Source: an uncultured Candidatus Saccharibacteria bacterium
GTDB lineage: Bacteria; Patescibacteriota; Minisyncoccia; Phycocordibacterales; UBA9973
DNA length: 42,186 nucleotides
Reading direction: 5' to 3'
NCBI GenBank assembly: GCA_964408305.1
Contig: CAYOYW010000005.1
Location: 1-42,186, forward strand
Positions 1 through 42,186 of the stretch are shown here, in pieces; position 1 is the first letter of the stretch; each line of letters begins with the position of its first letter. The notes under the pieces are model-generated. The model saw only the letters and a list, made by a program, of their open reading frames with translations, was not told where the DNA came from and did no database searches. The position numbers and the translations under genes are program-made.

Positions 1-55
1 ACTAGTAAAACATATAAAAGCATTTTATTTATTTGTATCATAACATGAAAGTACT
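1..55. repeat. Terminal direct repeat, identical to 42132..42186. This is the signature of a circular or circularly permuted assembly.
   Basis: actagtaaaacatataaaagcattttatttatttgtatcataacatgaaagtact occurs at both window ends. Confidence 0.95.
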
Positions 56-1025
56 GTCACTATTTGACTGAATAAGTTGTTGAATGATTGCACTAGAACG
101 TGCATGAATCAATGTAGAGAAATATTATGCTGCAGAAATAAAAAAAGATGCTATTCTTATTTCTCAAGACAATTACCCAGATATAATAAGGCTTGGTGAT
201 GTGAGAGATATTGACATTATTGAGGGGGGGGGGATAGATATAATTATATGATGAAGTCCTTGTCAATCGTTTTCCAATGCTTGAAAAAAAGAGTGATTTG
301 ATTGAAAAAGTTGATTATTTTACGAGTTTTTGAGAATACTTAGGGCTAATAAGCCTAGATTTTTCTTATTGGAAAATGTGAAGATGAAAAAGGAATGGCA
401 GGATATGATAACAAATATGTTGCTAGAAATATACCCAGATACAAAACTATATAATATAAATAGCTCTCTAGTATCTGCACAACTTAGAAACAGATTCTAC
501 TGGACCAATATACCATGAATTACTATGCCGGATGATAAGTGAATTGTCTTACAAGATATATTAGAAAGTTGATATACGGAAAGAAAAAAATATAGAGAAT
601 TATTAGAAAGTGATAGTAGACCACTAATTACAAAAGATAAAATGTTGTGGAGGTATATGGCTACATGATTTACAACTCTAGTATGGGATAGTGAAAAAAC
701 ATATTTGAGAGTAAAAGAAGCTACTAAAAAATGATATGTAGATATATGAGTAGATGAATGAGTAGATCTATCATATCCTACAAGTAAAACAAGAAGAGGA
801 AGAAGTATGAAAAGCAAAATACACACAATTACAAAAACAAAAAATGAATACTATCTTTTTGATGGTGAAGATATTAGATATCTTACTCAACAAGAACTAG
901 AAAAATGTCAAACATTGCCTGTATGATATACAAAATGTTTGCCTAGAAATAAGGCAGCATGATGTATAGGAGATTGACGAACGGTAGATGTTATCGCCCA
1001 CATATTTAGCTTTATTAAAAAATAA
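45..1025 (+). CDS. DNA (cytosine-5)-methyltransferase, 326 aa
   Basis: Code-25 translation gives MKVLSLFDGISCGMIALERAGI (motif I), IIIGGSPCQSFSNAGK (motif IV, catalytic Cys), PRFFLLENV (motif VI) and a C-terminal IGDGRTVDVIAHIF. Several of the motif glycines are TGA codons. TAA stop at 1023. Confidence 0.95.
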
Positions 1026-1028
1026 TAA

Positions 1029-1844
1029 ATGGAAAATCCTAGTTACTACGCAATCATACCAGCAGATGTGAGGTACTCAGATATCAAAGCAAATGCGAAG
1101 CTCCTATATGGAGAAATAACAGCCCTATCAAATAAGACAGGGATATGTTTTGCTAGTAATTCATATTTTGCTAATTTATATGGCGTATCTGACAAACAAG
1201 TATCTCTATGGATCAAAGAGCTTATGAATAAGTGATTTATAGATGTTGTTATCAAGCAAGAGGAGGGTAACAAAAGGTATATAACTATACACCAAAAAGT
1301 TACTACCTATACACCAAAAGGTGATGAGGGTATACACCAAAAGGTTTGATATAATAATACAAGTAATAATAATACCTCTAAAATCTCTACTAAAGTAGAT
1401 ACACCTGACGGTGATATAACGCCATCTGATCCTAAAATTGAAACCACCTGAAAAAAACCAGCTCACCCCCCAAAGCCCCCCTCTCAAGATTGACGTAGCG
1501 ACAGATCTCGTGAAGATATAAATACGCTAATTAAAACACTGAGGGAAACAGCGAAGGAACTTTGATTTGTATATGACAATGACAATGAACGCTTTTTTTG
1601 CAAGCATATACTAGACAGTACATTATTTTGAGACTTTGCTCAAAAGATATGAAAGTCCAGGACTGAAACAGCCGTGAGGATTATGATCCAAAGTAAGCAA
1701 TTCTACAAAACATGTATGTGACCAAAGGCGATATACAAAAACTACGCTCAGGTATACAATGACTTTGTACAGAAAAAACAACCAAAACAAGATACGAAAA
1801 ACTGAGTAACTAATTTATCCGCTTTAGCTAACCAATGAAAATAA
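1029..1844 (+). CDS. Replication-associated helix-turn-helix protein (replisome-organizer/DnaD-like N-terminus), 271 aa
   Basis: N-terminus YYAIIPADVRYSDIKANAKLLYGEITALSNKTGICFASNSYFANLYGVSDKQVSLWIKELMNKGFI is typical of the phage replication HTH family. The frame is open with TGA=Gly. TAA at 1842. Confidence 0.7.
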
Positions 1845-2224
1845 AACCTTACATCCCAGTAGTAAAAATTGAAATGAGATCTATGTGAAACGAAAAAGAG
1901 TACATAGATTGCCCTGAAATTATTACAAAGGAAATGCTTGATGCAGCACTTGCTGATTGATCTAGGTTTATCAACCTATGAGATGAAACAATCAACAAGG
2001 CAGATATCAAGAGAGTATTCATTGTGAGACCTCAGAATGATATTGAGGAGTTTATAGCACAACAGTCGTGAGATTTCAAAAAACAACTCCAAGATATATA
2101 CAACGAAAGAAAAGAAAAGAAAGTTAATACAAATTGAATTACACATTTACAGAATATACGAAAAGATAGATTTTGAGAAAAGAAAGTAGACAGTCAGAAA
2201 GCCATAAAACCTACTAAAAAATAA
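1835..2224 (+). CDS. Hypothetical protein, 129 aa
   Basis: The ATG overlaps the upstream stop region. The frame is open to TAA at 2222 once TGA is read as sense. Confidence 0.6.
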
Positions 2225-2238
2225 TCTCGTATTTCCTC

Positions 2239-2266
2239 TTGCAAATAAGAACTACGTTCGTATACT
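2239..2266 (+). promoter_or_regulatory. Sigma70-like promoter TTGCAA-N16-TATACT (copy 1 of a conserved CTCTTGCAA element)
   Basis: cctcTTGCAAataagaactacgttcgTATACT lies in a 74-nt gap upstream of the ATG at 2299. The same core is seen at 9299, 16039 and 41636. Confidence 0.6.
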
Positions 2267-2298
2267 ATAAACACTCATTTAGCACTTACAGATAAAAT

Positions 2299-2529
2299 AT
2301 GTCAGTAGTAAAACAAGAGAGTATCACGGAAGAGATGATCGATAAACACGTAGAAAAGTTTATTGATAGATTAGATATCTTATTCCATATACACTATCCA
2401 AAACGACTAGCTGATAAATTGTACTGAACTGCTAGATATGATCAGATAATAAGATGATATGCTAGAGATGAATTGGAAGCCGAAGAAGAAAACCTACAGA
2501 ATGATTTATCTCGTGAAAAATCAGAATAA
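2299..2529 (+). CDS. Hypothetical protein, 76 aa
   Basis: ATG at 2299 to TAA at 2527, with two in-frame TGA codons. Confidence 0.55.
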
Positions 2530-2648
2530 TGTATTACACTATATTACGTTTCAAGAGAGAGTTATTAGAAAAAATATACAAATGAATGATGATTGTATAC
2601 GCTGGTATAGCTATAACAATTATTATCGTAGGTATATGTATCAATTAG
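2529..2648 (+). CDS. Small hydrophobic protein, 39 aa
   Basis: TAATG stop/start overlap. Contains the TM-like stretch MMIVYAGIAITIIIVGICI. TAG at 2646. Confidence 0.35.
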
Positions 2649-2676
2649 TTTTTATCCGTAATTTATATAACCATAG

Positions 2677-3111
2677 ATGAAGTACAACGAACAGTGTTCA
2701 TGCTGCGGTAACAGAGTTACTGCATACACACATGGATTGAACTTGTGACTGATCAAAGCATTAGATGAGTTATGCAAGTTGCGAGATAAAAAGAGAAAAC
2801 CAATCAATGAGAGAAAGGAGTTGAATCTCACACTAAATGTACACTGTAACTTTCAAAAGCTCCGTTATTGGGGGCTAGTACAGCTTGTAGCTGGGGGGTG
2901 ATGGGAACCAACTCTTCTCTGATTGAGGTTCTGGCAATGATTAGAACCAGTACCAAACATTGTTGCTGCTATGCGTAATGAAGTACTACCGTACGATCAT
3001 ATAGCATGGACAACACATAAAGCACAACCTAAAAACAAGTACATACGAGAAGAAAAAGAGTTCGCATATAAAAAGCGTGAAGACTACGCTCAAGAAAGGT
3101 CTCCATTTTAA
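2677..3111 (+). CDS. Hypothetical Cys-cluster (CSCC...H) putative DNA-binding protein, 144 aa
   Basis: MKYNEQCSCCGNRVTAYTHGLNLGLIKALDEL...NFQKLRYWGLVQL. The frame was verified codon by codon. TAA at 3109. Confidence 0.6.
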
Positions 3112-3129
3112 TCCTTATTTCAAAAGACC

Positions 3130-3639
3130 ATGCAAAATATGACTCCTAATAATATACAAATCTGGTATAATTCGTATATTCAAAGAACATGACGTTCTAA
3201 TAATTCTGAGGAAGAATTATCATTGCTTATTGATTTTGCAAAAGATCATAATCTATATGACGAAGAAGCTGAGGCAAGAAATGAAATGAATGTAACAAGA
3301 CCAATTTTGAGACAAGTACCAGAAGACAAAGATTGACAATGAGATACAAGAATGTACAGATCTTGAACGTGGGAACCTCTTAGCGAATATGATATCAGAG
3401 ATCTAAAAGACTTTGATAGAGTATATTATTGGTATGAATCATGATCTTATGAATGAAGCTGATATATGATTGGTATAAAAAACGGTAAATGGTATTGAAA
3501 AGATATGTGACATTGTTCTTGCTACGGTCCTACTGAAGGTATAGAAAATGCAACACCATATAATTCATTTGAGGAATGTCTGGCAAATGCAACATTCACT
3601 CATGTACAAAAAGAATATATCAAAAAGGATTATCTTTAA
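3130..3639 (+). CDS. Hypothetical protein, 169 aa
   Basis: ATG at 3130 to TAA at 3637 with many in-frame TGA codons. No family recognised. Confidence 0.6.
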
Positions 3640-3651
3640 TTGATATCTCCT

Positions 3652-4914
3652 ATGGGGGATATTACAATGGATGGATATCTGTCTATTGTAATATCCTTTT
3701 ATATGGTAAACGCCTTACGTATGAAGATATTCTGAAAAGAAATTATTGAAGACAAAGTACTGGATCAACTCAATAATTGTATGATCCCAGGATCAATATG
3801 AGTTCTTACTGCAGATGCACATTACGGATATTCTATGCCAGTAGGTTGAGCAGTAGCGTATGAAAATCATATATCACTTTCATGAGTGGGTTTTGATATC
3901 TGATGTGGAAACAAAGCAGTCAAAACTAACCTAAAAGTATCTGATATTGATATCACACAAGTTATGCACAGAATATCGAGAGAGATATGATTCGGAGTAG
4001 GAAGACCAAACCCTGATCCAGTTGACCATCCAGTATTGGATAAAATCAAAAATGCAGTATTTGCTCCTCAAAGAGAACTTTATGAGCTTGCATCTAAACA
4101 ACTAGGTACAGTATGATCTGGAAATCATTATGTAGATATTTTCAAAGACGAAGAAGATACAATATGGATTTGAGTACATTTTTGATCAAGATGATTCGGA
4201 CACAAAACAACTATGATGTTTATAGCTATGTCACAATGACTACAGCCATTTGACAAAGCACACGAGTGACCTATGGATGGTAAACCTATCCTATTTGATA
4301 TGGACACACAAATATGAAAAGACTATTTTGAGGCAATGTCACTAGCAGGAGAGTATGCTTACGCTGGGCGTGATATTGTGTGTAATAAAGTTCTGGAGAT
4401 ACTAGGAGGCGTTTCAGTGGAAGAAATACACAATCATCACAATTTCGCACGAAAGGAAAGCCACTTTTGACGTGATTATTATGTGGTTAGGAAAGGATGT
4501 ACTCCTGCTTTCCCATGACAGAAATGATTTGTTGGAGCAAATATGGCAGATCAGTCAGTTATCCTAGAGTGAGTAGATTCAGAAGATTCAAAACAATGAC
4601 TTTATTCTACTGTGCATTGAGCTGGTAGAGTTATGGGAAGAAACGAAGCTGCATGAAAGAAGAGATGGAGAAAAGATAGAAAAATACGAGAGGTTATTCG
4701 TGAATGAAAAGTCAACTTTGATAATGTAAAAGATTATATGAAATCAAAAGGTATTGAGCTTGTAGGAGCATGAGCTGACGAAGCTCCTGAATGCTACAAA
4801 TCTCTCAAAGAAGTATTAGCATATCAATGAGATACAGTAAAAATCTTACACACGCTTACTCCAATATGAGTCGCTATGGCTGGAGAAGATGTGTACGATC
4901 CGTACAAAGACTAA
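3652..4914 (+). CDS. rtcB: RtcB-family RNA 3'-phosphate/5'-OH ligase, about 420 aa
   Basis: Motifs ADAHYGYSMPVGGAVAY, GFDIGCGN, VGSGNHYVDIF, HFGSRGFGHK, HNHHNFA, VRKGCTPA and STVHGAGR. Every line was checked in frame. TAA at 4912. The true start may be an internal ATG at 3703 or 3721. Confidence 0.93.
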
Positions 4915-4945
4915 TTTATTTATATACCTTATATAGTACAGACAA

Positions 4946-5929: not shown

Positions 5930-5956
5930 CACCTATTTATATACTCGTTACACACT

Positions 5957-6205
5957 ATGACTAAGCAAGAGATGTTAAAAGAAATATATAGAATAATCAA
6001 AACCCACCCTGAGTGAGATACTTGATATTCCACAATAAGAATTGGAGATATAATAGACCACCTATTTACATTTATGGACGATAGAGAAGTGTTTTTACGC
6101 ATACAAGGTATTATAGATGAAAAGTATAACACATCACATGCAACTGAAATATCAAACCGACCGATAGAAGCCATACACTACACCTACTCCATAATAACTA
6201 AGTAA
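5957..6205 (+). CDS. Hypothetical protein, 82 aa
   Basis: ATG at 5957 to TAA at 6203. Confidence 0.5.
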
Positions 6206-6232
6206 TCTATTTATCAATAATATATCTAAATC

Positions 6233-7004: not shown

Positions 7005-7007
7005 AAA

Positions 7008-8375
7008 ATGATACATCCATTCCAAGTAACAATAGCCCTAGAGCTATGCAAAGAGATATGATGAAAAACCTATATTGTATGAGGTGCAGTAAGAGATATT
7101 GTCATGGGTAAAGTTCCCAAGGATGTAGATCTTGCAACAAATGTGCCTATTTCAGATATATGTCATAGATTCGAAACTCATGATATTGGTAAAAACAAAG
7201 ATTTTGGTATTGTAGTCGTTATCTATAAATGATTTCACTTTGAGGTAGCACATTTCAGAAAAGATGGAAAATACTCTGATAGCAGAAGACCTGACTCAGT
7301 TCAACTTATTGATGATTTATACGAAGATCTTGCAAGGAGAGATTTTACTATGAATGCAATGGCATACGATGGTGAAAACATCATAGATCCATATAATTGA
7401 AAACAAGATATCAAAAAATGAATTATTAGATTTGTGTGAAATCCAAACGATAGAATTACTGAAGATAATCTCAGAGTTTTGAGGGCATATAGATTTGCTG
7501 CAAGATATAACTTCGATATCGCTGATGAGTTAGTTATGAAATGATATAGTCTTTTATGAGTAGCACAGGAGAGAGTCACTGATGAACTCAAGAAAGTAGC
7601 AAGCTATGGATGAAAACCACTTGCATCATTTATTCATAGATTGACAAATAACTCTATTGTGATTATACCAGAAATACAATCAAACCATTTATCGCAATCA
7701 ATGCTGCACCATCCAGAGTGATCTGTATTCAACCATATTATCCAATGTTTATGTGTTTCAGATATAGAAAACTATCTTGTTAATTTGTGTATATTATTCC
7801 ATGATGTAGGCAAACTAAACACATATAATCTAAAAGACGGTAAACATACATTTTATGGCCATGATACGGTAGGTGCAGAAATGATGGAAGCTATTGGGAA
7901 AAGAATGAAGTTCAGTACTGATGAAATAGAAACAATGAAATATGTCTGTAGAAATCACATGATCTGGCGATGGATGACAGACATGAAAAAATCTAGGATG
8001 GCAGATATAATAGTACACAAAGATTATCCTATTTTAGAGCAAGTATGTTTATGTGACGAGCTTGGTAGATTATATATGTGAGATATATTCAAACGAGCTA
8101 CTCAAAAATGAATTATTGATTTGACTAGAGTTTTGTATGATAAAAAGTCAGAATATGATAAGAAAATAAAATCATTTGTAGATGGTCGCAAGATAATGGA
8201 ACTCCGCCCAGACTTAGAATGATCTTATATTGGTATTGTAAAAAATATCGTAGTTGAGTATATCACCGATAGAGATTTCAAAGTGGACCAGGAGGAAGTT
8301 GAGAAGATAATCAAAAACTATAACAAAGAATTGAAGATCCAACCAAACCCTATCAAGCACCACAAAATACCATAG
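7008..8375 (+). CDS. cca: CCA-adding enzyme (class II tRNA nucleotidyltransferase with HD domain), 455 aa
   Basis: Motifs GGAVRDIVMGKVPKDVDLAT, RRDFTMNAMAY, FVGNPNDRITEDNLRVLRAYRFAARY and the HD motif LFHDVGK. Verified codon by codon. TAG at 8373. Confidence 0.93.
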
Positions 8376-8398
8376 TTTTATATCCTATACTCGATTGT

Positions 8399-8980
8399 AT
8401 GGTAGTAACACCCAAAACACGCAGAATAGTTTTGAGAAGACAATGAGGTATGTGTCGAGTAGAATGATGTACAAACAAACCATTGGAAATGCACCATATA
8501 TATTTCAAATCTCAGTATAAAAAAGATGATAGGGATGAGGCATGGAATCTGGCGTGATTATGTTCTAAACATCACAAAGACAATGTCGTGTGAGTACATG
8601 GATCCAACACAGAGTTGCGTGAAGCTCTTGTTGCACAAGCTGACCGTATCAAGCCACCTTATGAGAGATCTTTGGAGGTAATAAAAAAAGAAAGAAAGGA
8701 AGAGGTAGTATTGACTGATCACGAACTTAAAATGCTACAACGAGCAAAACAAAGAGACAAAGAGTACAGAAGACAGAGAGCGGTAGCATGGAAAAACAAA
8801 CAAGATCCAGAAATCGCAAAAGTTAGAAAAGAACGTAGAAAAAGAAGAGAGAAAAAATATAGGTTTGACAAAGAGATGTCTTTTAGAGCTACACATAATT
8901 GATTCAGTCCATCTCAATATAACTACAGAAAGCAAAAAGATTATTTACGTAACCAAAGGAAGTTATGAAGATATCTATAA
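8399..8980 (+). CDS. HNH endonuclease, 193 aa
   Basis: RRQGGMCRVEGCTNKPLEMHHIYF...DEAWNLAGLCSKHHKD followed by a basic tail. TAA at 8978. Confidence 0.85.
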
Positions 8981-9294
8981 AACCTCTTTCAATAAATAAG
9001 GCATTTCAGGGACGCAGATTCAAGACACAAGACTATAGGAGCTACGAACAATGACTCATGCTATTACTTCCTAATATAAAGTTACCAAAGGATATTAAGA
9101 TATCAATGACTATCGAGCGACACTTTTCGAATGAAGCTCAAGATATAGATAGTTCGGTAAAACTAACACTAGATGTCCTGCAAAAAAAATGGTGATTCAA
9201 CGACAAGCAGATATATCAACTAAATATGACTAAAAAGATTGTACCAAAATGAATGGAATGATTTACACTAGACGTTTGAGAAATTGTAGAATAA
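8965..9294 (+). CDS. rusA: RusA-family Holliday-junction resolvase, 109 aa
   Basis: KPLSINKAFQGRRFKTQDYRSYE...EAQDIDSSVKLTLDVLQKKWGFNDKQI. It overlaps the HNH gene by 16 nt. Confidence 0.8.
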
Positions 9295-9298
9295 TCTC

Positions 9299-9326
9299 TT
9301 GCAAATAAGAATGTAGTTCTTATTAT
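9299..9326 (+). promoter_or_regulatory. Promoter TTGCAA-N16-TATTAT (copy 2)
   Basis: atctcTTGCAAataagaatgtagttctTATTATacta. The first 16 nt are nearly identical to copy 1. Confidence 0.6.
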
Positions 9327-9357
9327 ACTAATATATTTATTTCATATACAAGTTTAC

Positions 9358-10167
9358 ATGACAGATACAGCTGGGGGGGAAATTGTACAAAAACCATGAT
9401 CGATTGCTATTTTTGATAGAGTCGATGTCAAGGATAAGTTCAAAGCGGTACTATGAAAGAAGTCGCCACAATTTATAGCATCTGTACTAACAGTAGTGAG
9501 TCAAAATGACTTACTCAAAAAAGCAGATCCTACTAGTATTTACTTAGCAGCACTTGTAGCAGCTACGCTAGATCTACCAATAAATCCTAACCTATGATAC
9601 GCACATATTGTGCCATATGGTGGGAAAGCACAGTTCCAAATGTGATATAGATGATTTATTCAATTAGCACATAGGACGAACCTTTTTAGAGATATTGATG
9701 CACAACCAGTGTATGAATGACAACGTGTACAGGATGATACTGTATTCGGATGATGGACATTCAAACGAAGTGCAAAAACATCTGATAAGATTATATGATA
9801 CGCTTCGTACTTCGAACTCATATCGTGATTCAAGCATACATTCTACATGAGCTTGGAAGAGATCCAAGAACATGGGAAAGAGTATAGTAAAACATACTGA
9901 CTAGAAAGTGGTAGATGGAAAAAAGATTTTGATGCAATGGCAGAAAAAACTGTATTGAAATTACTACTAAATAAGTACGCACCACTATCATTGGAAAACA
10001 CATACCAACTTGCAGAAGCTATCAAATATGATCAAGCGATTATCAATGCTGACTGAACTCCAGATTATGCGGACAATGAGCCAAGTATGGAGGCAGTAAT
10101 GGAATGATTCGAAAAGAGTCCTTTACCTTCTAACAAAGGTGGAGATGCAGAAGAATGATTATCTTAA
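9358..10167 (+). CDS. recT: RecT-family single-strand annealing recombinase, 269 aa
   Basis: LPINPNLGYAHIVPYGGKAQFQMGYRGFIQLAHRT and FDAMAEKTVLKLLL. Verified codon by codon. TAA at 10165. Confidence 0.92.
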
Positions 10168-10219
10168 TCTAACAGGTATATGAAGACAAGTAGTTGAGGC
10201 ATGGCTAGAACATAAAATT

Positions 10220-11284
10220 ATGAAAGATGAGTCGGTAGATATTGGTACTCAAATGTCATACGAGGAAAAAATTGAAAAGTATTTGTGTGACGAATGCAAG
10301 GATCGATATGTTATTCGTACTAGATGATCAATAACGGCATCAAAGATAAAATGCTTTATGAAAAACCCAGAAGAGTTCTGGATCAGATACGAGCTTGAAC
10401 TTCCAGAGTTTGAGCCGAAAGATAAACAAGCATTCAAGATGTGATCAGCGTTTGATGTTATGATATCAAGTGGTATAGATAAGTTCTCAGAATTATATTA
10501 CATTGATAAATGATATGTAAAATGAGATCTTATCAAACATATATCCTCTATGATTGATAAATACAAAGATGAGATTATGAAACATGAGAAACTAGCAAAG
10601 GAAGCTATCGAAGAAAAAATCCTAGAGCTGAAGAGCGAATCTCATATATTAAAATGGAGAGAAAAACAAAAGAATATAACTCCAGAAGATGTACTAGAAT
10701 GTCTTACGCTTGATCAGTTGAGAGATATATTTTATGAGGCATGAGATAGAATCAGATTGACTCCAGCTGAAGCTAGAGATATAATGGCTATGTATCATGA
10801 ATACGTTAGACAACCTCTATTTGATAGAGAATGAGAATATCAATGACAACATTATATTGAAGCTAAGTATGGAATCCTTCGTATTACATGAACTCTTGAT
10901 AGATTCTCATTGGAGAAAAAACTCATTAGAGATACAAAAACATCAGGTCGTATAGATAGATTCGAATATGATGTAGAGCATACATTTGACTATATAACTC
11001 AAATGGCGTTCTACTTCACACTTGCATACATACAATATGATGAATTAGAATGTGATGTATTGTTAGATATAGTTTCAACAAGTTCACCGTATGCCAGTAT
11101 CGTGTACAAGGTTAGCAAAAAGAAATTGAAGCTAAAAATGATGCAGGAAATCAAACCGGCATTTGCATCGCTTATCAGATGTTACGAAACAAATGAATGG
11201 CCAGTATGAGATAGAATGGCATCAATAACATCACCATACTATCCTATTATGCAAACAAGTATAATGTACCAGCCAGTAGAATAG
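10220..11284 (+). CDS. PD-(D/E)XK nuclease, probable exonuclease partner of RecT, 354 aa
   Basis: RITGTLDRFSLEKKLIRDTKTSG (D...D/E-x-K core). It lies immediately downstream of recT. TAG at 11282. Confidence 0.75.
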
Positions 11285-12351: not shown

Positions 12352-12352
12352 T

Positions 12353-13313: not shown

Positions 13314-14009
13314 ATGGATAAAAAGGTAGTCATACTTGACACAGAAACAAACTGATTCGTACATAATGAGATTATACAATTAGCGTATGTTATGGCACAT
13401 TGATATTGATATAATTCTCTCCGAGAAAGAAGTATATACTTTTCGGCAGAAAACCCCATTGATATAGAAGCCATGGCAGTACATCATATTACAGAGGATA
13501 AAATCTTTACAATGCCTAGGTTTTCATTAGACTCACTAATCCAAGCTATATGAGAAGATTCTATCATTGTAGCACACAACGCTCAATTCGATATAGGCGT
13601 TCTCCGTAAATATGGAGAAGTAAAAAATCCACACATCTGTACTATGAAACTTGCAGTATCTCTACAGAGATGGCCAAAAGTATCATTGCAATATCTAAGA
13701 TATGCTATATGATTATCTCAGGAATGAAAAGCACACGATGCTCTATGAGATGCAGTAATATGCCATAAGTTATTTGAGCATCTAAGAGACACAATCATTG
13801 CAGAGAAAGGTATGTCACTGGATGAGTTCTATGACTACGCCATAGGATTGAGTATGAAAGATATGTTCAACTTCGGTAAGCATAAATGAAAGTTTATGGA
13901 GGAAGTAAAAAAGGAGGATCCATGATATTTCAGATGGCTTATCGATGCAGAGAATAGAAAAGAAAGTCCAGACCAGACACAAATATGAGTATGGCAAAAG
14001 TATCTTTAA
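13314..14009 (+). CDS. DEDDh 3'-5' exonuclease (DnaQ/epsilon-like), 231 aa
   Basis: VVILDTETNG (Exo I), IIVAHNAQFDIGVL (Exo II), HDALGDAVI (Exo III) and a C-terminal FGKHKGKFMEEVKKEDPGYFRWL. Confidence 0.88.
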
Positions 14010-15022: not shown

Positions 15023-15682
15023 CTATCGCCTGAAGCTAAAATCTCAGGTGATTTTTTTGTTATGGATCATTCACATACAATTCAATACATTTACTTCCCA
15101 ACTACTTGTAGATGTAGCATAGAATGGAGCCGTACCTCAAGAGTATGGAGATAGATCTCATATAGTTTGCTTTCACTTTAGATATGATCAATTCAACACC
15201 CATCATATAGCATTGATACCTTGTTCTATATTCTTGAATCAAACCTTGTCACCACGATCATTATTACCTACATTCCCCCAGTTAAAAGGAGTCTTGAGAT
15301 GTTTACCTATTGACGTATCGGCGTATGTTATACATAGTAAAACTTCTGGATATACTTGGTGAATACGTGCAGTATGAATAAATGTACTCCATACAGCAGC
15401 TCCGCTTTGTCAGTAATCATTCAATAATTCTATAGCTCTTGCATCCCTACCTTTTCATTGCAAATCAGTGTATTTTTGAGATTTACCATTTTCATTCAGT
15501 AGCCATCGATCAGTAGGTTTTGTTGTTATTATTTCATCAGAAGGTAATCATATTTTGTCATTGTGCATCCAATCAGCCAGAACTGATCTACCAAATAGCA
15601 AAGTCACTACAATTCACACTATGAGAACTAGCTTTTGAGACGTTTTATTTATTGTTACTGGAACATATATTGTTTGTTTCAT
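15023..15682 (-). CDS. Membrane-anchored or secreted protein, possibly lysozyme-like, 219 aa
   Basis: All 220 minus-strand codons were checked, with no TAA or TAG. N-terminal TM LVLIVGIVVTLLF, then CITYADTSIGKHLKTPFNWGNVGNNDRGDKVGFKNIEQGINAIGWVL, which resembles glucosaminidase/transglycosylase-type motifs. The function is tentative. Confidence 0.65.
15027..15058 (+). terminator. Rho-independent terminator ending the early rightward arm
   Basis: cgcctga-agctaaaatc-tcaggtg followed by a T7 run. It overlaps the 3' end of the convergent minus-strand gene. Confidence 0.7.
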
Positions 15683-16044
15683 TAGTCTAATAGTTTAGGA
15701 GATAAAATGAGTGCTGATTCCATAGAGTCAAAATCCATCAATAAGATTTGATGACGTATTCTTTTCCCAATAGGATTGATAACTGATAGAGCTACTTTGT
15801 TTCCTTCAGCTCTTACTGGTCAAAGAACTACACATTGTTTACAAGTAATATCTACTACTTGCATAATTTCCTTCTTGTGATCTTGGAGTGTTGTTTCACT
15901 GATGGTAGTACATGAGTGAAATCGTGCGATAAGTGCTAATAACATGTTTGTATAAATAACGAAATAAATATCGTGTGATATTAGTATAGTCAGAAAAATA
16001 ATCTTGTCAAAAAATTGAATACTTTTTTCAAAAACCCCTTGCAA
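15682..16044 (-). CDS. Hypothetical protein (120 aa from TTG at 16044; 87 aa if the ATG at 15945 is used)
   Basis: The track ORF 15820..16044 extends through one TGA to a TAA that shares one nucleotide with the downstream ATG (TAATG coupling). No family recognised. Confidence 0.5.
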
Positions 16045-19505: not shown

Positions 19506-21476
19506 ATGACAACATCTCAACCTTGAGTAATGCCAGCAGTTCACAATCCAGCATCTAGCGTGGTAACACATCAACAACTTCCATTCAATGAATGAGATGC
19601 TCTAATGCAAATACAGAGCGAGTTCATGCAGTCGTATGCTTTCATGAGTCCAAAGCAAATCGATTGGCTAGAATACTTGAGAGCATACCATGACGGTAGA
19701 ATGCAAAAAGAAAAAGTGAAAATCAATCTTGCGTTTTCTAATATCAATGGATTGCAAGCTCTTGAAGCTATGGACCAACTACGTATCAAATACGTAGGAC
19801 AAAGCTACGAAGATTTTCCTAAGTGTGACAACTGGAATAAGCTAGCCAAGAACGCATATCAAAAAATGGGTATGACTCTGATTGATATCGAATGAGGTAC
19901 AAACAAGTACATGTACTGAGTGAAAGTAAAGCTCCTAGATATTGATGAGGACGGAGAAAGCATATCAGAGATTTTTGATACAAGACTCTTTTTCCCTGAT
20001 CCAAGTGGATGCTACCATGCTGAAAGATACAGATGGATGTGATTCAGAAAGTTCATGACAAAGGAGGATATGAAAGCTATGTGATTTGCTAACATAGGAC
20101 AATTCAGCAGATTGAAAGGTAATGATCTCCTTGAATGGAATCCATATCTTTGATTCGGACAATCACTTGAAATGGGAACAAACCTCCAGATGAACTTGTA
20201 CGCAGTGTATATGCACATGACAATCATTGGATGACACAAGTATATTATCTACACAAACGATGCGATGAACTGCATCGCTAAAGTTGTTAGATGTACTGAT
20301 CTCATACCGGCGTTGAAGAAAAGAACACTGGGAATCAAGTGAGAATTATGGCCAGTTGAACTAGACTTCTGGAGACCACAATATGGAAATCCAGTAGGTA
20401 TTTCAGTTATGGATCTAGTGTATGATAAACAGATAGCATTGTCTCAGGCAGTTAATCTACAAATGAAACGTGCAATCAGAATATCACTATGAGGACATAA
20501 GTTTTACGATATCAATATGATCAGAAACAGAAACGACATAGCAAAGATGGGAGTTGATCCAACTATTGTCGGAATAAATCTCAAGCAGTGACAAAGTCTA
20601 TCAAATGCAGTATACGAGCAACCAATCGCTGCACAAATGCCACCAGATAATTTCAACCTCCAAGATACGCTCCAATACCATACAAGACTATGAACTGGTA
20701 TGGATGCAAACCAACTAGGAGTTATGAACCAATGAGATCAAACTGCAACAGAGGTAAATAATCAGCAAGCAAATAGTAATGTGATACAATGATTCGGTAC
20801 AGTGCTTAACATTGAATCGGAAAAACTATTCCGGCTGAAGTGGTATCTCATGATGAAAAAGTCTCTCAAGTGAGTGCATAAAATAACAGTACTAAATACA
20901 CTCGGTGAAAAAGCCCTTGAATTCGGAAAGGATGACCTTATGATGGGCGAGATTGATGACGTTGTTATCAAGAGTGCATTAGACGAAATAGCCAAAGGTC
21001 AAAAGATGCTTAATGATATGCAACTAATGATACCTTTCGTATGATCTCTATGAGAATACTCTCAAAGAAAATACTATAGAGATATATGTGAACTCATTAC
21101 ATGAGACAAAGACAAAGCACTTGAATACGTCTATTATTCATCGGATGAGCTACAAGCTATGATCGATGTAAAACTCCTAAACAATGGAGAAAAACTTGGA
21201 CCAGTGACTGACATTATGACTGAAGACCATATTGCATACATAATGCGATACCAGCAAGCGAAGGATTCAGCATACAAAACACTTGCTATTCAGAACAGAA
21301 TGGAAGCTCTCAAAGAAAAAGAGAAAGCAATGAAACAACAACAAATAAATCAAGCACAAAATCCATGAGGACAAATGGCTTGATTACAAAGCCAGATGGC
21401 AGGTGCAATGGTCAACAAAGCTACTCAACAATGACAAGTAGCAGGTCAACCTACTGCAGCACCACAGGCAGCTTAG
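19506..21476 (+). CDS. Portal protein, 656 aa
   Basis: Called on size and its position directly after terL. The frame was verified line by line. TAG at 21474. Confidence 0.75.
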
Positions 21477-24355: not shown

Positions 24356-25315
24356 ATGACGTTTCCATTAAGTTCAATTAACATCAAAAATCCAAGTGCG
24401 GAACCATTTGTGTCATATATCAACAACAAGTTCTTGAAGCAATTCGAACCAAACTTGTTTTTTGCGAGATTCGCAGAACCACCAGTGGCACAAGAAGGTT
24501 ACAAATCAGTAACCTGGGTAAAAGCACAAAGATCTGAAGTAACTCCAGATCAAGCCAAGATGACTCCAGGTATCACACCTCCAGACTCTGGGCAAAAGTT
24601 AGATACCATTGAAGCTACGGCTAAACAATATGGTATGTATACAATTATCACTGACGAACTTGAATTGATTGCAAAGAACTTGCCATTGATGTCTCAAGTT
24701 GCTGAATTGATATCAAACAATATGGCACGTATCGTAGATCGTATCGTACAAGACGAAGTTCTTGATAATGCGGTTTATAGATTATATGCTGCAACTACTT
24801 CTGGATGAGTTCGTGCTGCCAACAGAGCTGCATTGACTGCTAACCACAAGTTATTTGCATTAGACTTTGTAAGAGCTAATACTCTTCTTCAAGAAAAGTA
24901 TGTTCCTTACAGAGAAGGTAACAGTTATATCGCTATTGTTCACCCAAGAGTGACTGATGGTCTTAAAACTGAAACTACTGTAGGTGCCTTCATTGACGTA
25001 CGTAAGTACTCTCAACCTGAAGATATTATCAGAGGTGAAATCGGTAAGCTCAATAACATCAGAATCGTAGAAAGTCCATTCGTTAAAGTTGTATCTAACG
25101 GTTCAATTAACGTATACCAAACTGCAGTATTCGGTTATCAAGCATACGGTATGGCTCAACTGGATAATATGAAATCTATCGTGAAACCATTCGGTTCAGG
25201 TGGAACAGAAGATCCATTGAATCAAAGAATGACTATCGGTGCTAAAACATTCTTCGCTGCTAAGATCCTTCAACAAGAAGCTATCCTAGTAATGGAATCT
25301 GCTGGTGCATTTTAG
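24356..25315 (+). CDS. Major capsid protein (HK97-fold type inferred), 319 aa
   Basis: Two track ORFs (24356..24808 and 24833..25315) are in one frame, joined through a single TGA at 24806. Sequence includes ...TEDPLNQRMTIGAKTFFAAKILQQEAILVMES. Position follows the scaffold gene. Confidence 0.85.
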
Positions 25316-31408: not shown

Positions 31409-31428
31409 TTTATCTATTTCAGGACAAG

Positions 31429-36285: not shown

Positions 36286-37599
36286 ATGGCTCCTCACTGA
36301 TATACCTCTGAAGGTTCAACAGTAATCACAAAACAAGTACAGACAGCAAACTCTGATCCAGGAAGTCTAAGTATGATTTTTTCTGATACATCAAACCTAG
36401 CAAAAATATACGCTCTAGTAGCAGGTAGTAGAATAACACTAGATAGGAACGTAAACGGTAGAATGACTATAGCAGTAGATTTGACTGGATTATCTAGTTC
36501 TGATATTACTAATTTTCAAGCAGCAGTTTCAGCTAATACAGACGTTGCAGCTAATACTGTAGCAAGACATACACACGCTAACAAAACAACTCTTGATAAG
36601 TTCTCAGAGCCATGAGGAGTATTGAACTTTAATGGTGTTCCAGTGAACTTCGAAAATCCTTTCCTAGGACAATGACAAGATGGAGCAGTTACAATATCAG
36701 TAGATACAACTCTTACTAGAGATATGTACTATGACACGCTCGTAGTAAATGCCTGAGTAAGATTGAATGCTGCATGATATCGTATTTTTGCAAAAACTAG
36801 TGTAACAGTAAATGGTATAATTAGTAACAACTGATTCAACGCATCTTGATCAACAGGATGATTGTGAGCTAGTGCTGGTACATTGAAATGATGACTTGAC
36901 GGTAAAAATGGTAGTATCTGAGCTACTGGTGCTATACCAGCGGTTGCAGGTACTGCATGATTAACAGGTACTGCATCAGCAAATAGTCTATGAGTTGCAG
37001 GTACTGCATGAGGTGCTGGATGAGATACTGGAAATTATGGTCCAAATAGTATTGCATCAGGTGGTGCATCTTGAGCTGGATGAGCAAGAACAGTTGCCAT
37101 AAATCTACCAAAATCTATCTATCAATTCATGGCATTCGTAGATGCCAATTATAGTGTTAACAACGTAACAGCATACTACTCTTCTTCAGCATGAGGTGGA
37201 TGAGGTGGATGAGGTGCAGCATATTGATCTCCAGCTACTGGTTGAACTGGTGGATGAGGTGGATGATGATGAGGTATCGTATTCATCTATACTCCTAGCT
37301 TGACTATATGAGCTACATGAGTGATCGAAGCGAATTGATGAGCTGGTTGAAACGGAACGGCTTGAACTGGCGGTACTGGATGACAGACTGCAGGTTGAGG
37401 TGGATGAGGTTCTGGATGAGCAGGATGAGTTGTTATCTTGATATATAAAGCTATTAGTAATGCTTGAGTTGTTAGAGCGTTATGATGAGCTGCATGAGCA
37501 GGATGATCTCCATTGCAATTCGGTGGTACATGAGCTACTGCATGAGCAGGTTGAGTATCATGAAATACATGAAATACTTACACTTACACATATATCTAA
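36286..37599 (+). CDS. Glycine-rich tail fibre/spike-like protein, 437 aa
   Basis: Every line was checked. There are about 48 in-frame TGA codons by hand count. Sequence includes SSSAGGGGGGGGAAYGSPATGGTGGGGGGGGGIVFIYTP and VIEANGGAGGNGTAGTGGTGG. Confidence 0.8.
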
Positions 37600-37850
37600 T
37601 GATAGAAAAAGCCAAACAATTAGTCACAATACAGGTGGATCGAGATATTCCAGAAGAGCGATATTGGAGAAAGCTCTATATGGAGTATTTCGAACATCTA
37701 TGAATGGAGTACGTAACAAAATCCATTGTCCATGTGTTTGACTGGATTGATAAAAGAGTAAATAACAACTATTGAAAACAAGCTGAAGCGTTCGCAGAAA
37801 TAGTGATACGTTTCCAGTGAAATCCTATTTTAGATGCTATCCCAAACTAA
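37599..37850 (+). CDS. Hypothetical protein, possibly a fibre assembly factor (by position only), 83 aa
   Basis: TAATG stop/start overlap with the upstream gene. TAA at 37848. Confidence 0.5.
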
Positions 37851-37853
37851 CAA

Positions 37854-39641
37854 ATGTGAGCTACAGTACACGGTTATACGTGAAAGAATCAATCACCAAC
37901 TATGGTTGCATGGGGGAATATCACAGGTACGCTTGCGAATCAAGCCGACCTAGTTGCAGCACTCGCTACCAAAGCGAATGATTCTACGGTTGTTCACAAA
38001 GCTGGTAACGAAACTATCACAGGCGTAAAAACATTCAATGATAGTACTATTGTTATGCAAAATGTAGCAGGTACTTTTACGGTAACACTCACTAATACAG
38101 TTACTGCGAATAGAGTACTTACATTGCCAAATGTTACTGATGTTCTAATTAGTAGATCATCTTCTGATACTGTGACTAATAAAACATTTTCTAATAATAC
38201 GAAACTTGCAGGATCTACTCAAACTACAAGTACATCAGTAACAACAACATCTAATCCAGTTCAATACGTAGATGCTACCGCTTGAAATATAACTATTACA
38301 TTGCCAACTATTGCAAACTGACAGTGGTATAGGATCTATAAAATAGATGCAACTGCAAATACCGTAACAGTACAAAGAGCTTGAACTGATACAATAAATG
38401 GTGGTACTAATGTGGTAATATCTAAACAATACGCATGATATGAATGTCTTTGATGATGAGGTACTAACTGGGTAGCTGAATATATGCAACCTACAGAAAC
38501 TGCATGATGAACTCCATGAGGTTCAAGTACACAACTCCAATACAACAATGCTGGAGTTTTTTGAGGTATTACATGAGCAACTACAAATGGTACTACAGTT
38601 ACTCTTACATCTCCAATAATCACGACTTCTATAACAACAGGTTCAGCAACATTATCTGTGTTTGATGCGACTGCTACTACAGTGACTGCGTTCCAAGCTG
38701 CAACAACTATGACAATAGGTTGAACTCCTACAACAGCTATCACACATAACTATTCTACAAATGCTACTGCTGCAGCAACTACAAAAACAGTTAATCTTGG
38801 AACTTGAGGTGCAGCATCTTCTACAACAAATATCAATATATGATCAGCAAATGGTGGTACTACTACAATCAATTCACTACTAATTTCATTGTGAGGTATT
38901 ACATGAGCAACTACTACAGGTACTATTGAATTGTGAAACGCTTCAGATACTACATTATCAAGAAGTGCCGCAGGTAGATTAGCGGTAGAATGAGTTAATG
39001 TGGTTACTATATCAAGTGCTGATACATTGACTAACAAAACAATGACAGCAAGTACTAATGTTATCGGTTGAGTTACAATGACTCTTGGTACAGATGCTAC
39101 ATGAGATATTTATTACAGAAGTGCCGGATGAGTACTAACAAGATTGCCTATATGATCTGGTACACAAGTTCTTTGAGTTTCGGCAGGTATACCAGCGTGG
39201 ACAACTCCTTCTGGATGAGTTTGAGATCACGGTTGTTACTTAACACAAACAACAGGTACTACAGGTGCATTCGGTGCATATACTACATTATGATTTGATA
39301 CTGAATCGTATGATACTGATGGTTACCATGATAATGTCACAAACAACAGTAGAATTACAATTCCAGCAAGTAGATGAGGTACATATATAATCAGTGGATG
39401 AGCTGGTCAAAGTGTTAACTTCAGAGCGTTGAAACTAATCAAAAACTGAACTACTCAGTTAACAGTACAAGGTGCAGTAGGTTCTTCATGATCTCCATCA
39501 GGTACAGATGCTGGTACATTCAACTTATCATGGACTGGTAGATTGGTAGTTACAGACTTTGTTGAACTACAACTATATACAACGTCTAATACTGTAACAT
39601 CTTCTACATACACATACTTCTCTGCTCAACAAATCGCATAA
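37854..39641 (+). CDS. Tail fibre protein, 595 aa
   Basis: WGNITGTLANQADLVAALATKANDSTVVHKAGNETITGVKTF, a repeated GGITGATT motif, and LSRSAAGRLAVEG. Verified line by line. TAA at 39639. An alternative start is at 37902. Confidence 0.85.
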
Positions 39642-39718: not shown

Positions 39719-40009
39719 ATGCTAGAAACCCTTATATTGCCTACTCTCAAAGAATACTGACCTTTCATGTGAATGGTTATATTAGCAGTAATATACTTCG
39801 TATATGAGCTTAGAAAAAAGGATTTATATATAATTGATATCACCAACAAGTTCATCAATATCGCTCAGGATAACATAAAAGTAAACACAGAAATCAGTGT
39901 TACTATCAAAAATCTTAGCGAAATGATGAGGACACAAACTATGCTTATGCAAGATAGTCAACAAAAACTCACTGAGGTATTGACAGAAGTGAAGTTTATG
40001 AGAAAGTAG
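39719..40009 (+). CDS. Small membrane protein with a coiled-coil tail (holin or lysis-regulator candidate), 96 aa
   Basis: The TM MVILAVIYFVY is followed by a helical region. TAG at 40007. Confidence 0.55.
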
Positions 40010-40030: not shown

Positions 40031-40210
40031 ATGGAACTAGAGATCTTATCACTCCGACACGGAAAGAAAAAGCTCTGAAGAAGAGCTACAAAAGAATACG
40101 TTGCATTTATAGTTCTTTTTCTATTTTCAACAGTATATCGATGACATGCAAATACAGTTATTCATACTCTTGGGCTATATTCCTTCAACACTACTTTATA
40201 TTCTACCTAA
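40031..40210 (+). CDS. Possible small membrane protein, 59 aa
   Basis: TM VAFIVLFLFSTVY. It overlaps the next ORF by 65 nt in another frame, so it is doubtful. Confidence 0.25.
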
Positions 40211-40469
40211 CATAATCATGACTCCAGAAATCCCATCATTACCAAACCAGCTCAATAAAACAGACATCGTAAAACGGCTCATCAATGTTATCAAGTACTT
40301 TGGATGAGTTGTTATTATGTCAATTTTCGATTACTTCATGGCATTCTTTGGAATGTGAGTTTTTTCTCTACATGACCTATGGCTATGAATCGCATGAGCG
40401 GTAGTCGGTGCTGCACTTGATCTATATCACAGATATAAATCAAATAACACATTGCCTTTACTCCCATAA
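40146..40469 (+). CDS. Multi-pass membrane protein, holin candidate, 107 aa
   Basis: MQIQLFILLGYIPSTLLYILPNII...GGVVIMSIFDYFMAFFGMGVF...LGIAGAVVGAALDLY. It lies immediately upstream of the endolysin. Confidence 0.6.
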
Positions 40470-40478: not shown

Positions 40479-40982
40479 ATGACTCACCAAGAATACATCA
40501 AAAAGTATTTGTGAATGAGGGTAGATTTTGACAACGCTTATGCTTATCAATGTGTTGATCTTGCACGCCATTACTGCGGTATGGTATGGCAATATCTTAC
40601 ATGATTATTTTGAGGTAGTGCATACGCAGGATGGGTTAATAGACAAAAGACTTTCAAGTGAAAAGCATATATCACATGATTCCCAAAGGATTCATCTACC
40701 GTAAAAGTGTGAAGTGTTGTTATTTTCAAGCCAGGTGCAACAATTATGACAAAGTATCCATGAAACAACCAAGCATGGAGAAAAATCAGATTTTGAAAAG
40801 ACTGACACGTTTGAGTTATTGATTATATTGACAACGATTGAGTCATGAGAATCATTGAGCAAAACTGAATCAATGGTAGAATTATCAATGGGAAAAGAGT
40901 GTACGATTGATTATGAGAAAACGCTATCCGCCTAATGTGATACCAAGGGAAAGATGCAGTAGCATGATTTATTTTGCAATAA
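40479..40982 (+). CDS. CHAP-domain endolysin, 167 aa
   Basis: FDNAYAYQCVDLARHY (Cys at 40551), ...DGHVGVIDYID, ...IIEQN. Confidence 0.85.
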
Positions 40983-40986
40983 TACC

Positions 40987-41544
40987 ATGATACCAGCTCC
41001 AAAACACACCTTCAGCGAGAAAATGTATGAGTTCAATCAGCATGATATGGATGAGAGTTGATGTACGTATATTACAGGTATAACAATCATAGCAAACAAC
41101 CATTGAATACATTTCACTGACGAAAACATAAAAACGCTATTAGATAACAGACCAAAATTACCACAAAGATCTTCTAGTAATTTATGATTCGCATTCAGCA
41201 AATTGGTGCTGGATGTAAATATAATGTTCAATGTGAAACTTAATCTCCAAAAAATCGACTTAATTATGGCTTACGATTGGATGCAAAAGTGACGAATGGT
41301 GGCAGTCCAATGAAAAATCAATACTTTGTACGTTAACGACATAAAAGATTGAAAATGGGACAAATCATTTCCAATACAAGCCAATGATGATCAGCACGCT
41401 AGATGTATGCACATTATGTGAAATTACACTTACATAACAGAGAACTTCAAATGAATATTGCCATACAATACATTCCGTGTTAACCGTTTTATACAAATGG
41501 TTACAGATGGAGTTCTAAAAAGAGAGGCATTTACAATAATATAA
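40987..41544 (+). CDS. Hypothetical protein with a Cys...His pattern (possible cysteine peptidase), 185 aa
   Basis: DESGCTYITGITIIAN and DDQHARCMHIMG. Verified line by line. TAA at 41542. Confidence 0.6.
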
Positions 41545-41546
41545 GA

Positions 41547-41627
41547 ATGAAACTAACAAAATTGAGAAAGACATTGATATGGATCCGCATTGTATTGCTT
41601 ATTTTAGGCATATCAAAAAGAAGATAA
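41547..41627 (+). CDS. Possible 26-aa membrane peptide
   Basis: MKLTKLRKTLIWIRIVLLILGISKRR. Confidence 0.25.
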   Translation: MKLTKLRKTLIWIRIVLLILGISKRR

Positions 41628-41635
41628 AAAATCTC

Positions 41636-41663
41636 TTGCAATCAAAAATATATTGCTTATACA
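41636..41663 (+). promoter_or_regulatory. Promoter TTGCAA-N16-TATACA (copy 4)
   Basis: aatctcTTGCAAtcaaaaatatattgctTATACAat. Confidence 0.55.
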
Positions 41664-41788
41664 ATCTCCAGCCACCTATATCTACGTATAGGTAGGTAAA
41701 AGACCATTCTCTTGCAGGTACGGAAGTAGTGAGCCGTCAGGCAAGCTATCATGTACCACTCACTACGCAAGTTGAGTGGTCTTTTTTT
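41664..41788 (+). ncRNA. Candidate small RNA bounded by promoter copy 4 and a terminator
   Basis: About 125 nt with no ORF. It contains the hairpin acctata-tctacg-tataggt, internal pairings cttgc/gcaag and ggtac/gtacc, and a terminal terminator hairpin. Confidence 0.3.
41756..41788 (+). terminator. Rho-independent terminator
   Basis: ccactca-ctacgcaagt-tgagtgg, then tc and a T7 run. Confidence 0.8.
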
Positions 41789-41808
41789 ATTCAAATTATT
41801 TACAAAAC

Positions 41809-42174
41809 ATGGATAGACATTGAATTGAACTAGAACTTATTGAAAGCCTCATTGAGGCAATACAATTAGTTAATTGAGAGATGTTCTCAAAAGAAGAATT
41901 GATAAGTCGATTGCGTAAGCAACAAGATATAATTTCACAAGAGGAAGATGAGGAAGAAATGTTTGACGAGCAATGAGACATAGATTTCCTAAATGCAATC
42001 GCTGAGGCAACAAAGCAAAAATTCGCATTTTGAGATCGACAATTCTCAGGATGAAACTTTTTTGCAAAAATGTGAGTGTGAAACAAGGCATCAATATCAT
42101 TGTGACAAACTCAAGCTACAGCAAACAATAAACTAGTAAAACATATAAAAGCATTTTATTTATTTGTATCATAA
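41809..42174 (+). CDS. Hypothetical acidic protein, 121 aa, spanning the circularisation junction
   Basis: ATG at 41809. The TAA at 42172 corresponds to positions 41-43, 1 nt before the methyltransferase ATG at 45. Confidence 0.55.
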
Positions 42175-42186
42175 CATGAAAGTACT
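42132..42186. repeat. Terminal direct repeat (copy of 1..55)
   Basis: Exact 55-nt identity with the window start. Confidence 0.95.

Follow-up and report, generated by a model that had tools for sequence, protein, structure and literature searches.

A circular phage genome with in-frame TGA codons

The DNA analysed here is contig CAYOYW010000005.1 of GenBank assembly GCA_964408305.1, taken over its full length of 42,186 nucleotides and referred to below as the window. It is the complete, circularly assembled genome of a phage, probably a tailed double-stranded DNA phage, whose genes use TGA as a glycine codon and CGA and CGG as tryptophan codons. Its identification as a phage is supported by the presence of the small and large terminase subunits (TerS and TerL), a capsid protein, fibres and a CHAP lysin, together with an overlap between the two ends of the contig. 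The morphology is probably that of a podovirus; P22-type portal domains and SU10-type adaptor domains occur in relatives.

Bases 1-55 of the window are an exact copy of bases 42132-42186, and this 55-bp match is present at both ends only. A terminal overlap of this kind is the signature of circular assembly and leaves 42,131 unique bp, so that the original prediction of a complete phage, made from the sequence before the present analysis, is borne out. The junction breaks no gene, as the last gene stops at 42174 (equivalent to position 43) and the first, for a DNA methyltransferase, begins at 45. The longest apparently non-coding stretch, of 264 bp (41545-41808), lies just upstream of this last gene and the circular junction.

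When TAA, TAG and TGA are all treated as stops, the longest stop-to-stop open reading frame (ORF) is 208 aa on the plus strand and 226 aa on the minus strand. Treating TGA as a sense codon gives plus-strand ORFs of up to 1499 aa stop-to-stop (1485 aa from the first ATG) and 52 ORFs that reach 100 aa or more, together 14,530 aa. No such gain is seen when TAG or TAA is made sense instead. ORFs of 150 aa or longer take up 13% of the window when code 11 is applied and 90% when TGA is sense, and a non-overlapping set of some 48 genes covers about 94% of the window, every gene in the set ending in TAA (38) or TAG (9). The collapse of ORFs under the standard code and their recovery with TAA and TAG as stops had already been recognised. 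Two details of that earlier description need adjustment: its longest gene, put at 1465 aa, is 1485 aa long, and at least two genes lie on the minus strand (15023-15945). Greedy ORF picking also returned long minus-strand ORFs at 14012-14398, 16076-16692 and 23030-24297, which were rejected as antisense artefacts of plus-strand genes, judged by their composition.

The genes that bear most directly on the meaning of the recoded codons are the following.

45..1025, plus strand: C5 cytosine DNA methyltransferase (MTase); PF00145 (DNA_methylase), 4.9e-38; 19 in-frame TGA
3652..4914, plus strand: RtcB RNA ligase; PF01139, 1.7e-59; 24 TGA
7008..8375, plus strand: CCA-adding tRNA nucleotidyltransferase with an HD domain; PF01743 (PolyA_pol head), 1e-31, and PF01966; 14 TGA
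9358-10167, plus strand: RecT; PF03837, 2.8e-47
17928-19469, plus strand: TerL; 24 TGA
36286-37599, plus strand: tail-fibre-like protein of 437 aa, 22.7% glycine; 48 TGA plus 51 GGN codons

The family names given to the first five of these in the original prediction are upheld, by Pfam matches for the MTase, RtcB, the CCA-adding enzyme and RecT, and by 821 homologues for TerL, which has no Pfam match.

Meaning of TGA, CGA and CGG

TGA was masked as X in the translations, homologues were gathered and the residues in each alignment column were tabulated. Across the MTase, RtcB, CCA-adding enzyme, RecT and TerL, it is glycine that prevails at the TGA columns, not tryptophan or gaps. The 24 TGA columns of RtcB hold glycine in 2346 of 2856 cells from 119 homologues, and the tryptophan cells found there belong to eight homologues with TGA recoding of their own, which had been mistranslated. 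Against standard-code homologues, the 24 TGA columns of TerL (82 homologues) have glycine in 900 of their 1656 non-gap cells, and the 14 TGA columns of the CCA-adding enzyme (111 homologues) in 686 of 1454; in the latter, tryptophan, which makes up 0.8% of background residues, is not among the commonest residues. Pooling the 62 TGA codons of these three families and taking standard-code homologues gives glycine in 67% of cells and tryptophan in a fraction of 0.00, the same as at columns encoded by GGA (71% glycine) or GGT (72%). A majority residue is present at 46 of the TGA columns and is glycine at 40 of them. Conversely, of 56 columns with 80% or more glycine in the homologues, the window encodes 28 with TGA.

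Profile hidden Markov models (HMMs) built from the standard-code homologues give the same answer, since a glycine translation of TGA scores 65, 38 and 28 bits above the masked translation in the three families, and a tryptophan translation scores below it. Alignments to proteins in the PDB (DNMT3A/B, a CCA-adding enzyme and the RecT 7UB2) agree. In the MTase, TGA aligns with the glycines of DNMT3A/B in FDG, motif I and GGSPC, and in RecT it falls on glycine at six of the eight columns aligned with 7UB2. The motifs in which TGA had originally been noticed are all present: MTase motif I at 63-83 (TTTGACTGAATAAGTTGTTGA) and motif IV at 249-266 (TGATGAAGTCCTTGTCAA), RtcB 4111-4128 with its TGA at 4114 (GTATGATCTGGAAATCAT), the CCA-adding enzyme at 7080-7097 (TGAGGTGCAGTAAGAGAT) and TerL at 18945-18974 (GAT TTA TGA TGA GCT TGA GGT TGA GAC GAT, DLGGAGGGDD). 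TGA is the commonest glycine codon of the genome, accounting for 479 of 943 (51%). It is thus a glycine codon, as originally claimed, and UAA and UAG are the sole terminators.

A low GC content (36% for the window) and the form in which the proteins are stored would fit a code-4 phage, reading UGA as tryptophan in a Mycoplasma- or Spiroplasma-like host. The copy of the window RtcB in a public protein collection carries tryptophan at all 24 TGA positions, from which it follows that the collection used code 4. The alternative itself has next to no probability. Tryptophan is essentially absent at the TGA columns of standard-code homologues and lowers the profile scores below those of the masked translation; glycine would make up only 3.8% of residues if TGA were not counted; and the 437-aa fibre-like protein, in which mixed TGA and GGN codons form runs of 8-11 glycines, would acquire implausibly long runs of tryptophan. 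Many relatives of the phage are stored in the same mistranslated form, and a composition rich in tryptophan and poor in glycine provides a quick flag for code-25 proteins treated in this way.

Absconditabacteria have been predicted to read CGA and CGG as tryptophan as well as UGA as glycine (Shulgina & Eddy 2021; PMC8629427), and the Arg-box codons of the window were tabulated after this published prediction. Individual codons fall on strongly conserved tryptophans. Codon 267 of RtcB (CGA, 4450-4452) occupies a column that is tryptophan in 111 of 111 standard-code homologues, and in TerL the columns of codon 239 (CGG, 18642-18644) and codon 353 (CGA, 18984-18986) are tryptophan in 81 and 57, respectively, of 82 standard-code homologues. 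Tryptophan is also the commonest residue in the column of TerL codon 118 (CGA), and codon 312 of the MTase (CGA, 978-980) aligns with the tryptophan of the DNMT3 motif 'GRSWSVPV'. In the pooled alignments CGG is matched by tryptophan in 99% of cells, though the comparison with standard-code homologues covers a single CGG column. The CGA columns are 32% tryptophan and 4% arginine, and the columns of CGT, CGC, AGA and AGG are arginine. The ratio of tryptophan to arginine cells is 296 to 31 for CGA and CGG together, compared with 11 to 3219 for the other four Arg-box codons. Neither CGA nor CGG is used at any of 23 conserved arginine columns in the RtcB, TerL and CCA-adding enzyme alignments, and reading them as tryptophan rather than arginine raises the profile HMM scores of these families by 5, 14 and 2.4 bits.

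Comparison among the TGA-recoded relatives points the same way. Codon pairs aligned between them include CGA with TGG 88 times and CGG with TGG 50 times, compared with once each for AGA and AGG with TGG. The CGA and CGG codons of the window pair with tryptophan or another CGA or CGG in 35 of 50 cases and with arginine or lysine in none; for CGG, the 13 pairings include nine with tryptophan and three with CGA or CGG. At 32 (CGA) and 4 (CGG) per 10,000 codons, both fall inside the ranges published for Absconditabacteria (below 37 and below 7; PMC8629427). CGA and CGG are tryptophan codons in this genome and supply about a third of its tryptophan. The original statement that TGG continues to encode tryptophan is correct but does not cover all tryptophan codons, and its assignment of the code to translation table 25 is right for UGA but misses CGA and CGG: the code is not plain table 25, and a second change had been overlooked.

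These observations bear on a further possibility, namely that the phage uses plain table 25 in a host from the Gracilibacteria (BD1-5), with CGA and CGG still encoding arginine and their positions at tryptophan columns marking real substitutions of tryptophan by arginine. The change from TGG to CGG is a single transition, and some CGA codons do lie in charged contexts. However, the columns concerned include invariant tryptophans (111 of 111 in RtcB, 81 of 82 in TerL), and real arginine substitutions would mostly have used AGA, which makes up 67% of the Arg-box codons, whereas AGA-TGG pairs number one and CGA/CGG-TGG pairs 138. Plain table 25 is therefore unlikely, and the distribution of these codons among relatives, described below, also speaks to it.

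Other genes and codon usage of the capsid gene

The remaining features of the genome, in map order, are as follows.

Early module, plus strand: HTH (helix-turn-helix) protein
3130-3639: 169-aa protein; weak partial PHROG integrase match, E 3.7e-5
8399-8980, plus strand: HNH endonuclease, matching PHROG HNH families; part of a recombination module spanning 8399..11284
8965-9294, plus strand: RusA-like resolvase; PF05866, 6.9e-4, a weak match
10145-11284, plus strand: PD-(D/E)XK exonuclease; PF12705, 9.2e-9
11482-12351, plus strand: SPFH/Band-7 protein; PF01145, 3.5e-28
12353-12601, plus strand: protein of 82 aa whose N-terminus, MKKCFTIIELLIVFVIIGILAAALIP, resembles that of a type IV prepilin; directly after the SPFH gene
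13314..14009, plus strand: ExoX-like 3'-5' exonuclease; PF00929, 2.1e-17, and PF20600, 2.8e-10
15023..15945, minus strand: island of at least two genes between the early and late modules
15023-15682, minus strand: 219-aa membrane-anchored protein; homologues on the TGA-recoded phage contigs L001 (52%) and L108 (38%)
15682-15945, minus strand: 87-aa ORF
17046-17918, plus strand: TerS; PF16677, 3.9e-15
19506..21476, plus strand: putative portal protein, 656 aa, directly after TerL; 26-28% identity to the same-position ORF in five recoded relatives
24356..25315, plus strand: major capsid protein; PF25209, 2e-10; no CGA or CGG
28694-31408, plus strand: 904-aa protein with an internal CHAP peptidoglycan-hydrolase domain; PF05257, 6.6e-6, at residues 611-700
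31369-35826, plus strand: 1485-aa protein with 51 TGA and an HExxH motif (THEVLHAYF); no Pfam match
Within 36286..39641, plus strand: 595-aa fibre
39719-40009 and 40146-40469, plus strand: two small membrane proteins, holin candidates by position and hydrophobic segments only
40479-40982, plus strand: CHAP endolysin; PF05257, 1e-9; TGA in 16 of 23 glycine codons

RtcB and the CCA-adding enzyme are read as a tRNA-repair pair. On three other TGA-recoded phage-like contigs (L167, L168 and L169) the homologous CCA enzyme adjoins a PNKP-type kinase/phosphatase, and a TROVE (Ro-like) protein is encoded on one of them as well. Phages of these hosts may commonly need to repair damaged tRNA. The 82-aa protein could be pilin-like and act on host type IV pili; hits to it from the N_methyl, GspG, ComGC and PilA models are confined to the N-terminus (the leader and hydrophobic helix) and all fall below cut-off. 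No convincing integrase is present among the window proteins scanned, the only hint being the weak PHROG match of the 169-aa protein. The 219-aa minus-strand protein has no match in Pfam, NCBIfam, PHROG or the PDB, and its homologue on L001 likewise lies on the strand opposite RtcB. This protein and RtcB are all that L001 has in common with the window, and CGA pairs with tryptophan on L001 also.

Among the late genes, the portal assignment is putative. Compared with portal-position ORFs of standard-code prophages, the candidate gives a weak hhalign match (probability 36%, E 3.7e-4). The 904-aa and 1485-aa proteins are putatively virion-associated, and the latter may be an injected or virion-associated enzyme. 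The tail-fibre region (36286..39641) contains a weak BppL_N match (5.7e-5).

Usage of TGA is not even across these genes. The original prediction that TGA serves early and late genes alike holds in that 46 of the 47 plus-strand genes contain it, but the capsid gene uses it for only one of 19 glycine codons, compared with 479 of 943 genome-wide (Fisher p=2.7e-5), and the gene that follows (25382-25948) for three of 20. The capsid genes of the relatives L087, L088, L108, L007 and L010 have TGA at 0/28, 2/29, 6/27, 0/26 and 0/25 of their glycine codons, while in the TerL and portal genes of the same five relatives TGA makes up 39-72% of glycine codons. The codons of the window capsid gene are also shifted toward ACT, ATC, AAC, GGT and CGT. 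The bias resembles what a general selection of optimal codons would give, UGA being a non-optimal codon for glycine.

Relatives, host and wider meaning

Relatives were recovered with the TerL alignment, TGA positions being masked as X. The 37 nearest TerL homologues in a large protein collection are all rich in tryptophan and poor in glycine and are therefore mistranslated, TGA-recoded sequences; the longest of their contigs measure 38-48 kb. At columns that are tryptophan in the standard-code homologues, 22 of these 37 show an 'R', compared with 14 of 984 cells in the standard-code homologues themselves. This apparent arginine is concentrated in the closer relatives, being present in 20 of 25 at 42% identity or more to the window and in two of 12 below that. 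In the DNA itself, two groups with reciprocal patterns can be told apart by where CGA and CGG fall.

Group A (the window, L087, L088, L108 and L051): CGA/CGG on conserved tryptophan columns, and never on conserved arginine columns
Group B (L004, L007, L008 and L010): CGA/CGG on conserved arginine columns, and never on conserved tryptophan columns

In a second TerL alignment with 12 conserved arginine columns, the window uses CGA or CGG at none, whereas the group B relatives do so at one to five of the same 12. The split matches the published codes of two host lineages and places the window with the Absconditabacterales type. Plain table 25 for the window might seem to draw support from one distant TerL relative, 43% identical, which is found in a metagenome-assembled genome (MAG) labelled Gracilibacteria. 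However, this relative shows the opposite pattern to the window, with CGA and CGG on arginine columns and none on tryptophan columns. It is the group B member L008, a 38-kb contig in a MAG that NCBI labels 'Candidatus Gracilibacteria'.

Wider searches were less productive. Scanning GTDB genomes with TerL gave for the most part prophages that are 34-40% identical and belong to standard-code Proteobacteria and Chlamydiae; five of the 80 loci kept are recoded, none of them a close relative. A scan of IMG/VR for the capsid protein with back-translated patterns found no relative, and a blastn comparison of 17928-25315, the structural region, with GenBank phages gave no match. Three of the TGA-recoded phage contigs lie in GTDB representative MAGs, L010 (RXJX01000004.1), L051 (JAAEPT010000134.1) and L007 (CALMFT010000007.1), whose labels are Neisseriaceae, Cytophagales and 'uncultured bacterium', respectively. 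Their presence in the Neisseriaceae- and Cytophagales-labelled MAGs is almost certainly a binning error.

The window contains no tRNA genes detectable by ARAGORN and no RNA families detectable with Rfam, and no release factor or aminoacyl-tRNA synthetase is found among the window proteins scanned. TGA nevertheless accounts for 60% of the glycine codons of the early module (45-14917) and for 46% of those of the late module. A phage that encodes no tRNA and uses TGA throughout needs a host that natively reads UGA as glycine. The decoding scheme inferred for such a host would have all phage genes, the early ones included, translated by host tRNAs, with a tRNA-Gly(UCA) reading UGA and a CGR-reading tRNA-Trp reading CGA and CGG, in a cell without release factor 2 (RF2) activity on UGA. 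The phage would then simply be written in the code of its host.

The code could in principle belong to the phage rather than to the cell, being imposed on a standard-code host during infection, as has been proposed for Lak and crAss-like phages; phages of this type exist for TAG and for TGA read as tryptophan (preprint 10.1101/2021.08.26.457843). The absence of a suppressor tRNA and, among the proteins scanned, of a release factor or aminoacyl-tRNA synthetase makes this very improbable, as does the spread of TGA over nearly all genes (a share of 0.60 early and 0.46 late), because the first genes to be expressed themselves carry TGA and would be untranslatable in such a host. The change at CGA and CGG is from one sense to another, which a phage could impose only by displacing host tRNA-Arg, and no suppressor carried by a phage could divert these codons from it.

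A code native to the host narrows the choice considerably. Bacterial UGA as glycine is known only in the class uniting Absconditabacterales and BD1-5 (PMC8629427), and the only lineage predicted to combine it with CGA and CGG as tryptophan is the Absconditabacterales (SR1), a combination restated for this lineage in 2026 (PMC13092985). The Absconditabacterales are therefore the likeliest host, and the Gracilibacteria or Absconditabacteria type originally proposed, correct as to a host with native UGA-glycine, is narrowed to the Absconditabacterales type by CGA and CGG. The origin of the repair genes was considered as a further clue, but neither points to the host: the nearest named relatives of RtcB are from Bacteroidota (for example Rufibacter, 62%), and the nearest relatives of the CCA-adding enzyme are on other TGA-recoded phage-like contigs.

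Taken as a whole, the reading of the window as a complete phage written in its host's code, with UGA as glycine, CGA and CGG as tryptophan and the Absconditabacterales (SR1) as the likeliest host, has a probability of roughly 0.8. Several points count against it. Only about eight of some 44-48 CGA and CGG codons lie in alignable families, and one such codon, RtcB codon 346, is on a variable column dominated by proline, arginine and lysine. Several CGA codons stand in charged contexts that would be natural for arginine, so decoding of CGA may be ambiguous. The host is assigned from the code rather than from a spacer, prophage or co-binning link, and the host-side assignment of CGA and CGG to tryptophan is itself a computational prediction.

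Code-25 phages of Absconditabacteria have been described before (Borges et al., preprint 10.1101/2021.08.26.457843; Liu et al. 2023, PMC10746230). The window resembles them in being an uncultivated metagenome genome with TGA as glycine in about 90% or more of its genes (about 90% in the preprint), in the collapse of coding under code 11 and in its dependence on the host code. It differs in that their hosts were linked by CRISPR spacers (for 50 phages of Absconditabacteria and 57 of Gracilibacteria in Liu et al. 2023), whereas that of the window is deduced from the code. Both papers treat the code as table 25, CGA and CGG are not mentioned by Liu et al. (PMC10746230), and a full-text literature search found no report of CGA or CGG as tryptophan in a phage. 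What is added here is the second reassignment, the division into two code groups and the capsid genes' avoidance of TGA, none of which is categorically new.

Other known systems share single features with the window. The three reassignments are the same as those of the Absconditabacterales (PMC8629427), with CGA and CGG similarly rare and within the host ranges, though the published prediction concerns bacterial genomes and the signal here is in a virus without tRNA genes. A phage lacking the relevant tRNA and following the sense reassignment of its presumed host has a parallel in phages predicted to read AGG as methionine, from the samples that yielded AGG-recoded Bacilli (Shulgina & Eddy 2021). 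That case involves another codon, another amino acid and another host lineage, and the window combines a stop-codon with a sense-codon reassignment. Lak and crAss-like phages, with TAG as glutamine or TGA as tryptophan, also read in-frame stops as sense, but they infect standard-code Bacteroidota and Firmicutes, often encode suppressor tRNAs or release factors (none being found in the window), and have in-frame stops in 26-71% of genes (clade means), compared with about 90% in code-25 phages and 46 of 47 in the window (10.1101/2021.08.26.457843). By capsid protein, the nearest relatives in culture are the Bacillus megaterium podophages Pascal, Page and Pony, whose proteins are 29-30% identical to that of the window along 93% of its length. 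Their genomes are of similar size (about 40 kb), but they use the standard code and have no detectable DNA similarity to the window; the relationship is remote.

The odds lean slightly towards a broader conclusion, that the window and roughly twenty uncultivated relatives (with complete contigs of about 40 kb) share CGA and CGG as tryptophan plus UGA as glycine, that arginine is retained in a sister group belonging to the same terminase family, and that the sense-codon reassignment predicted for the Absconditabacterales thereby gains its first evidence from the virus side. A parasite that has no tRNAs of its own and follows a sense-codon reassignment provides independent support for the predicted code of its host. 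There are also practical consequences. Annotation with table 25 still puts arginine at about 45 tryptophan positions, some of them invariant tryptophans of RtcB and TerL, and if the reading is true, pipelines that use table 4, 11 or 25 all mistranslate these genomes. The CGA/CGG signature would serve as a cheap host marker, distinguishing Absconditabacterales from Gracilibacteria without alignment to host genomes or spacers.

The near-absence of UGA from the capsid genes suggests that UGA is a poor glycine codon for highly expressed genes. If the reading is true, the code itself separates the phages of Absconditabacterales from those of BD1-5/Gracilibacteria, and the existence of two code variants within one terminase family suggests that the difference in code limits host switching between these sister CPR (candidate phyla radiation) lineages.

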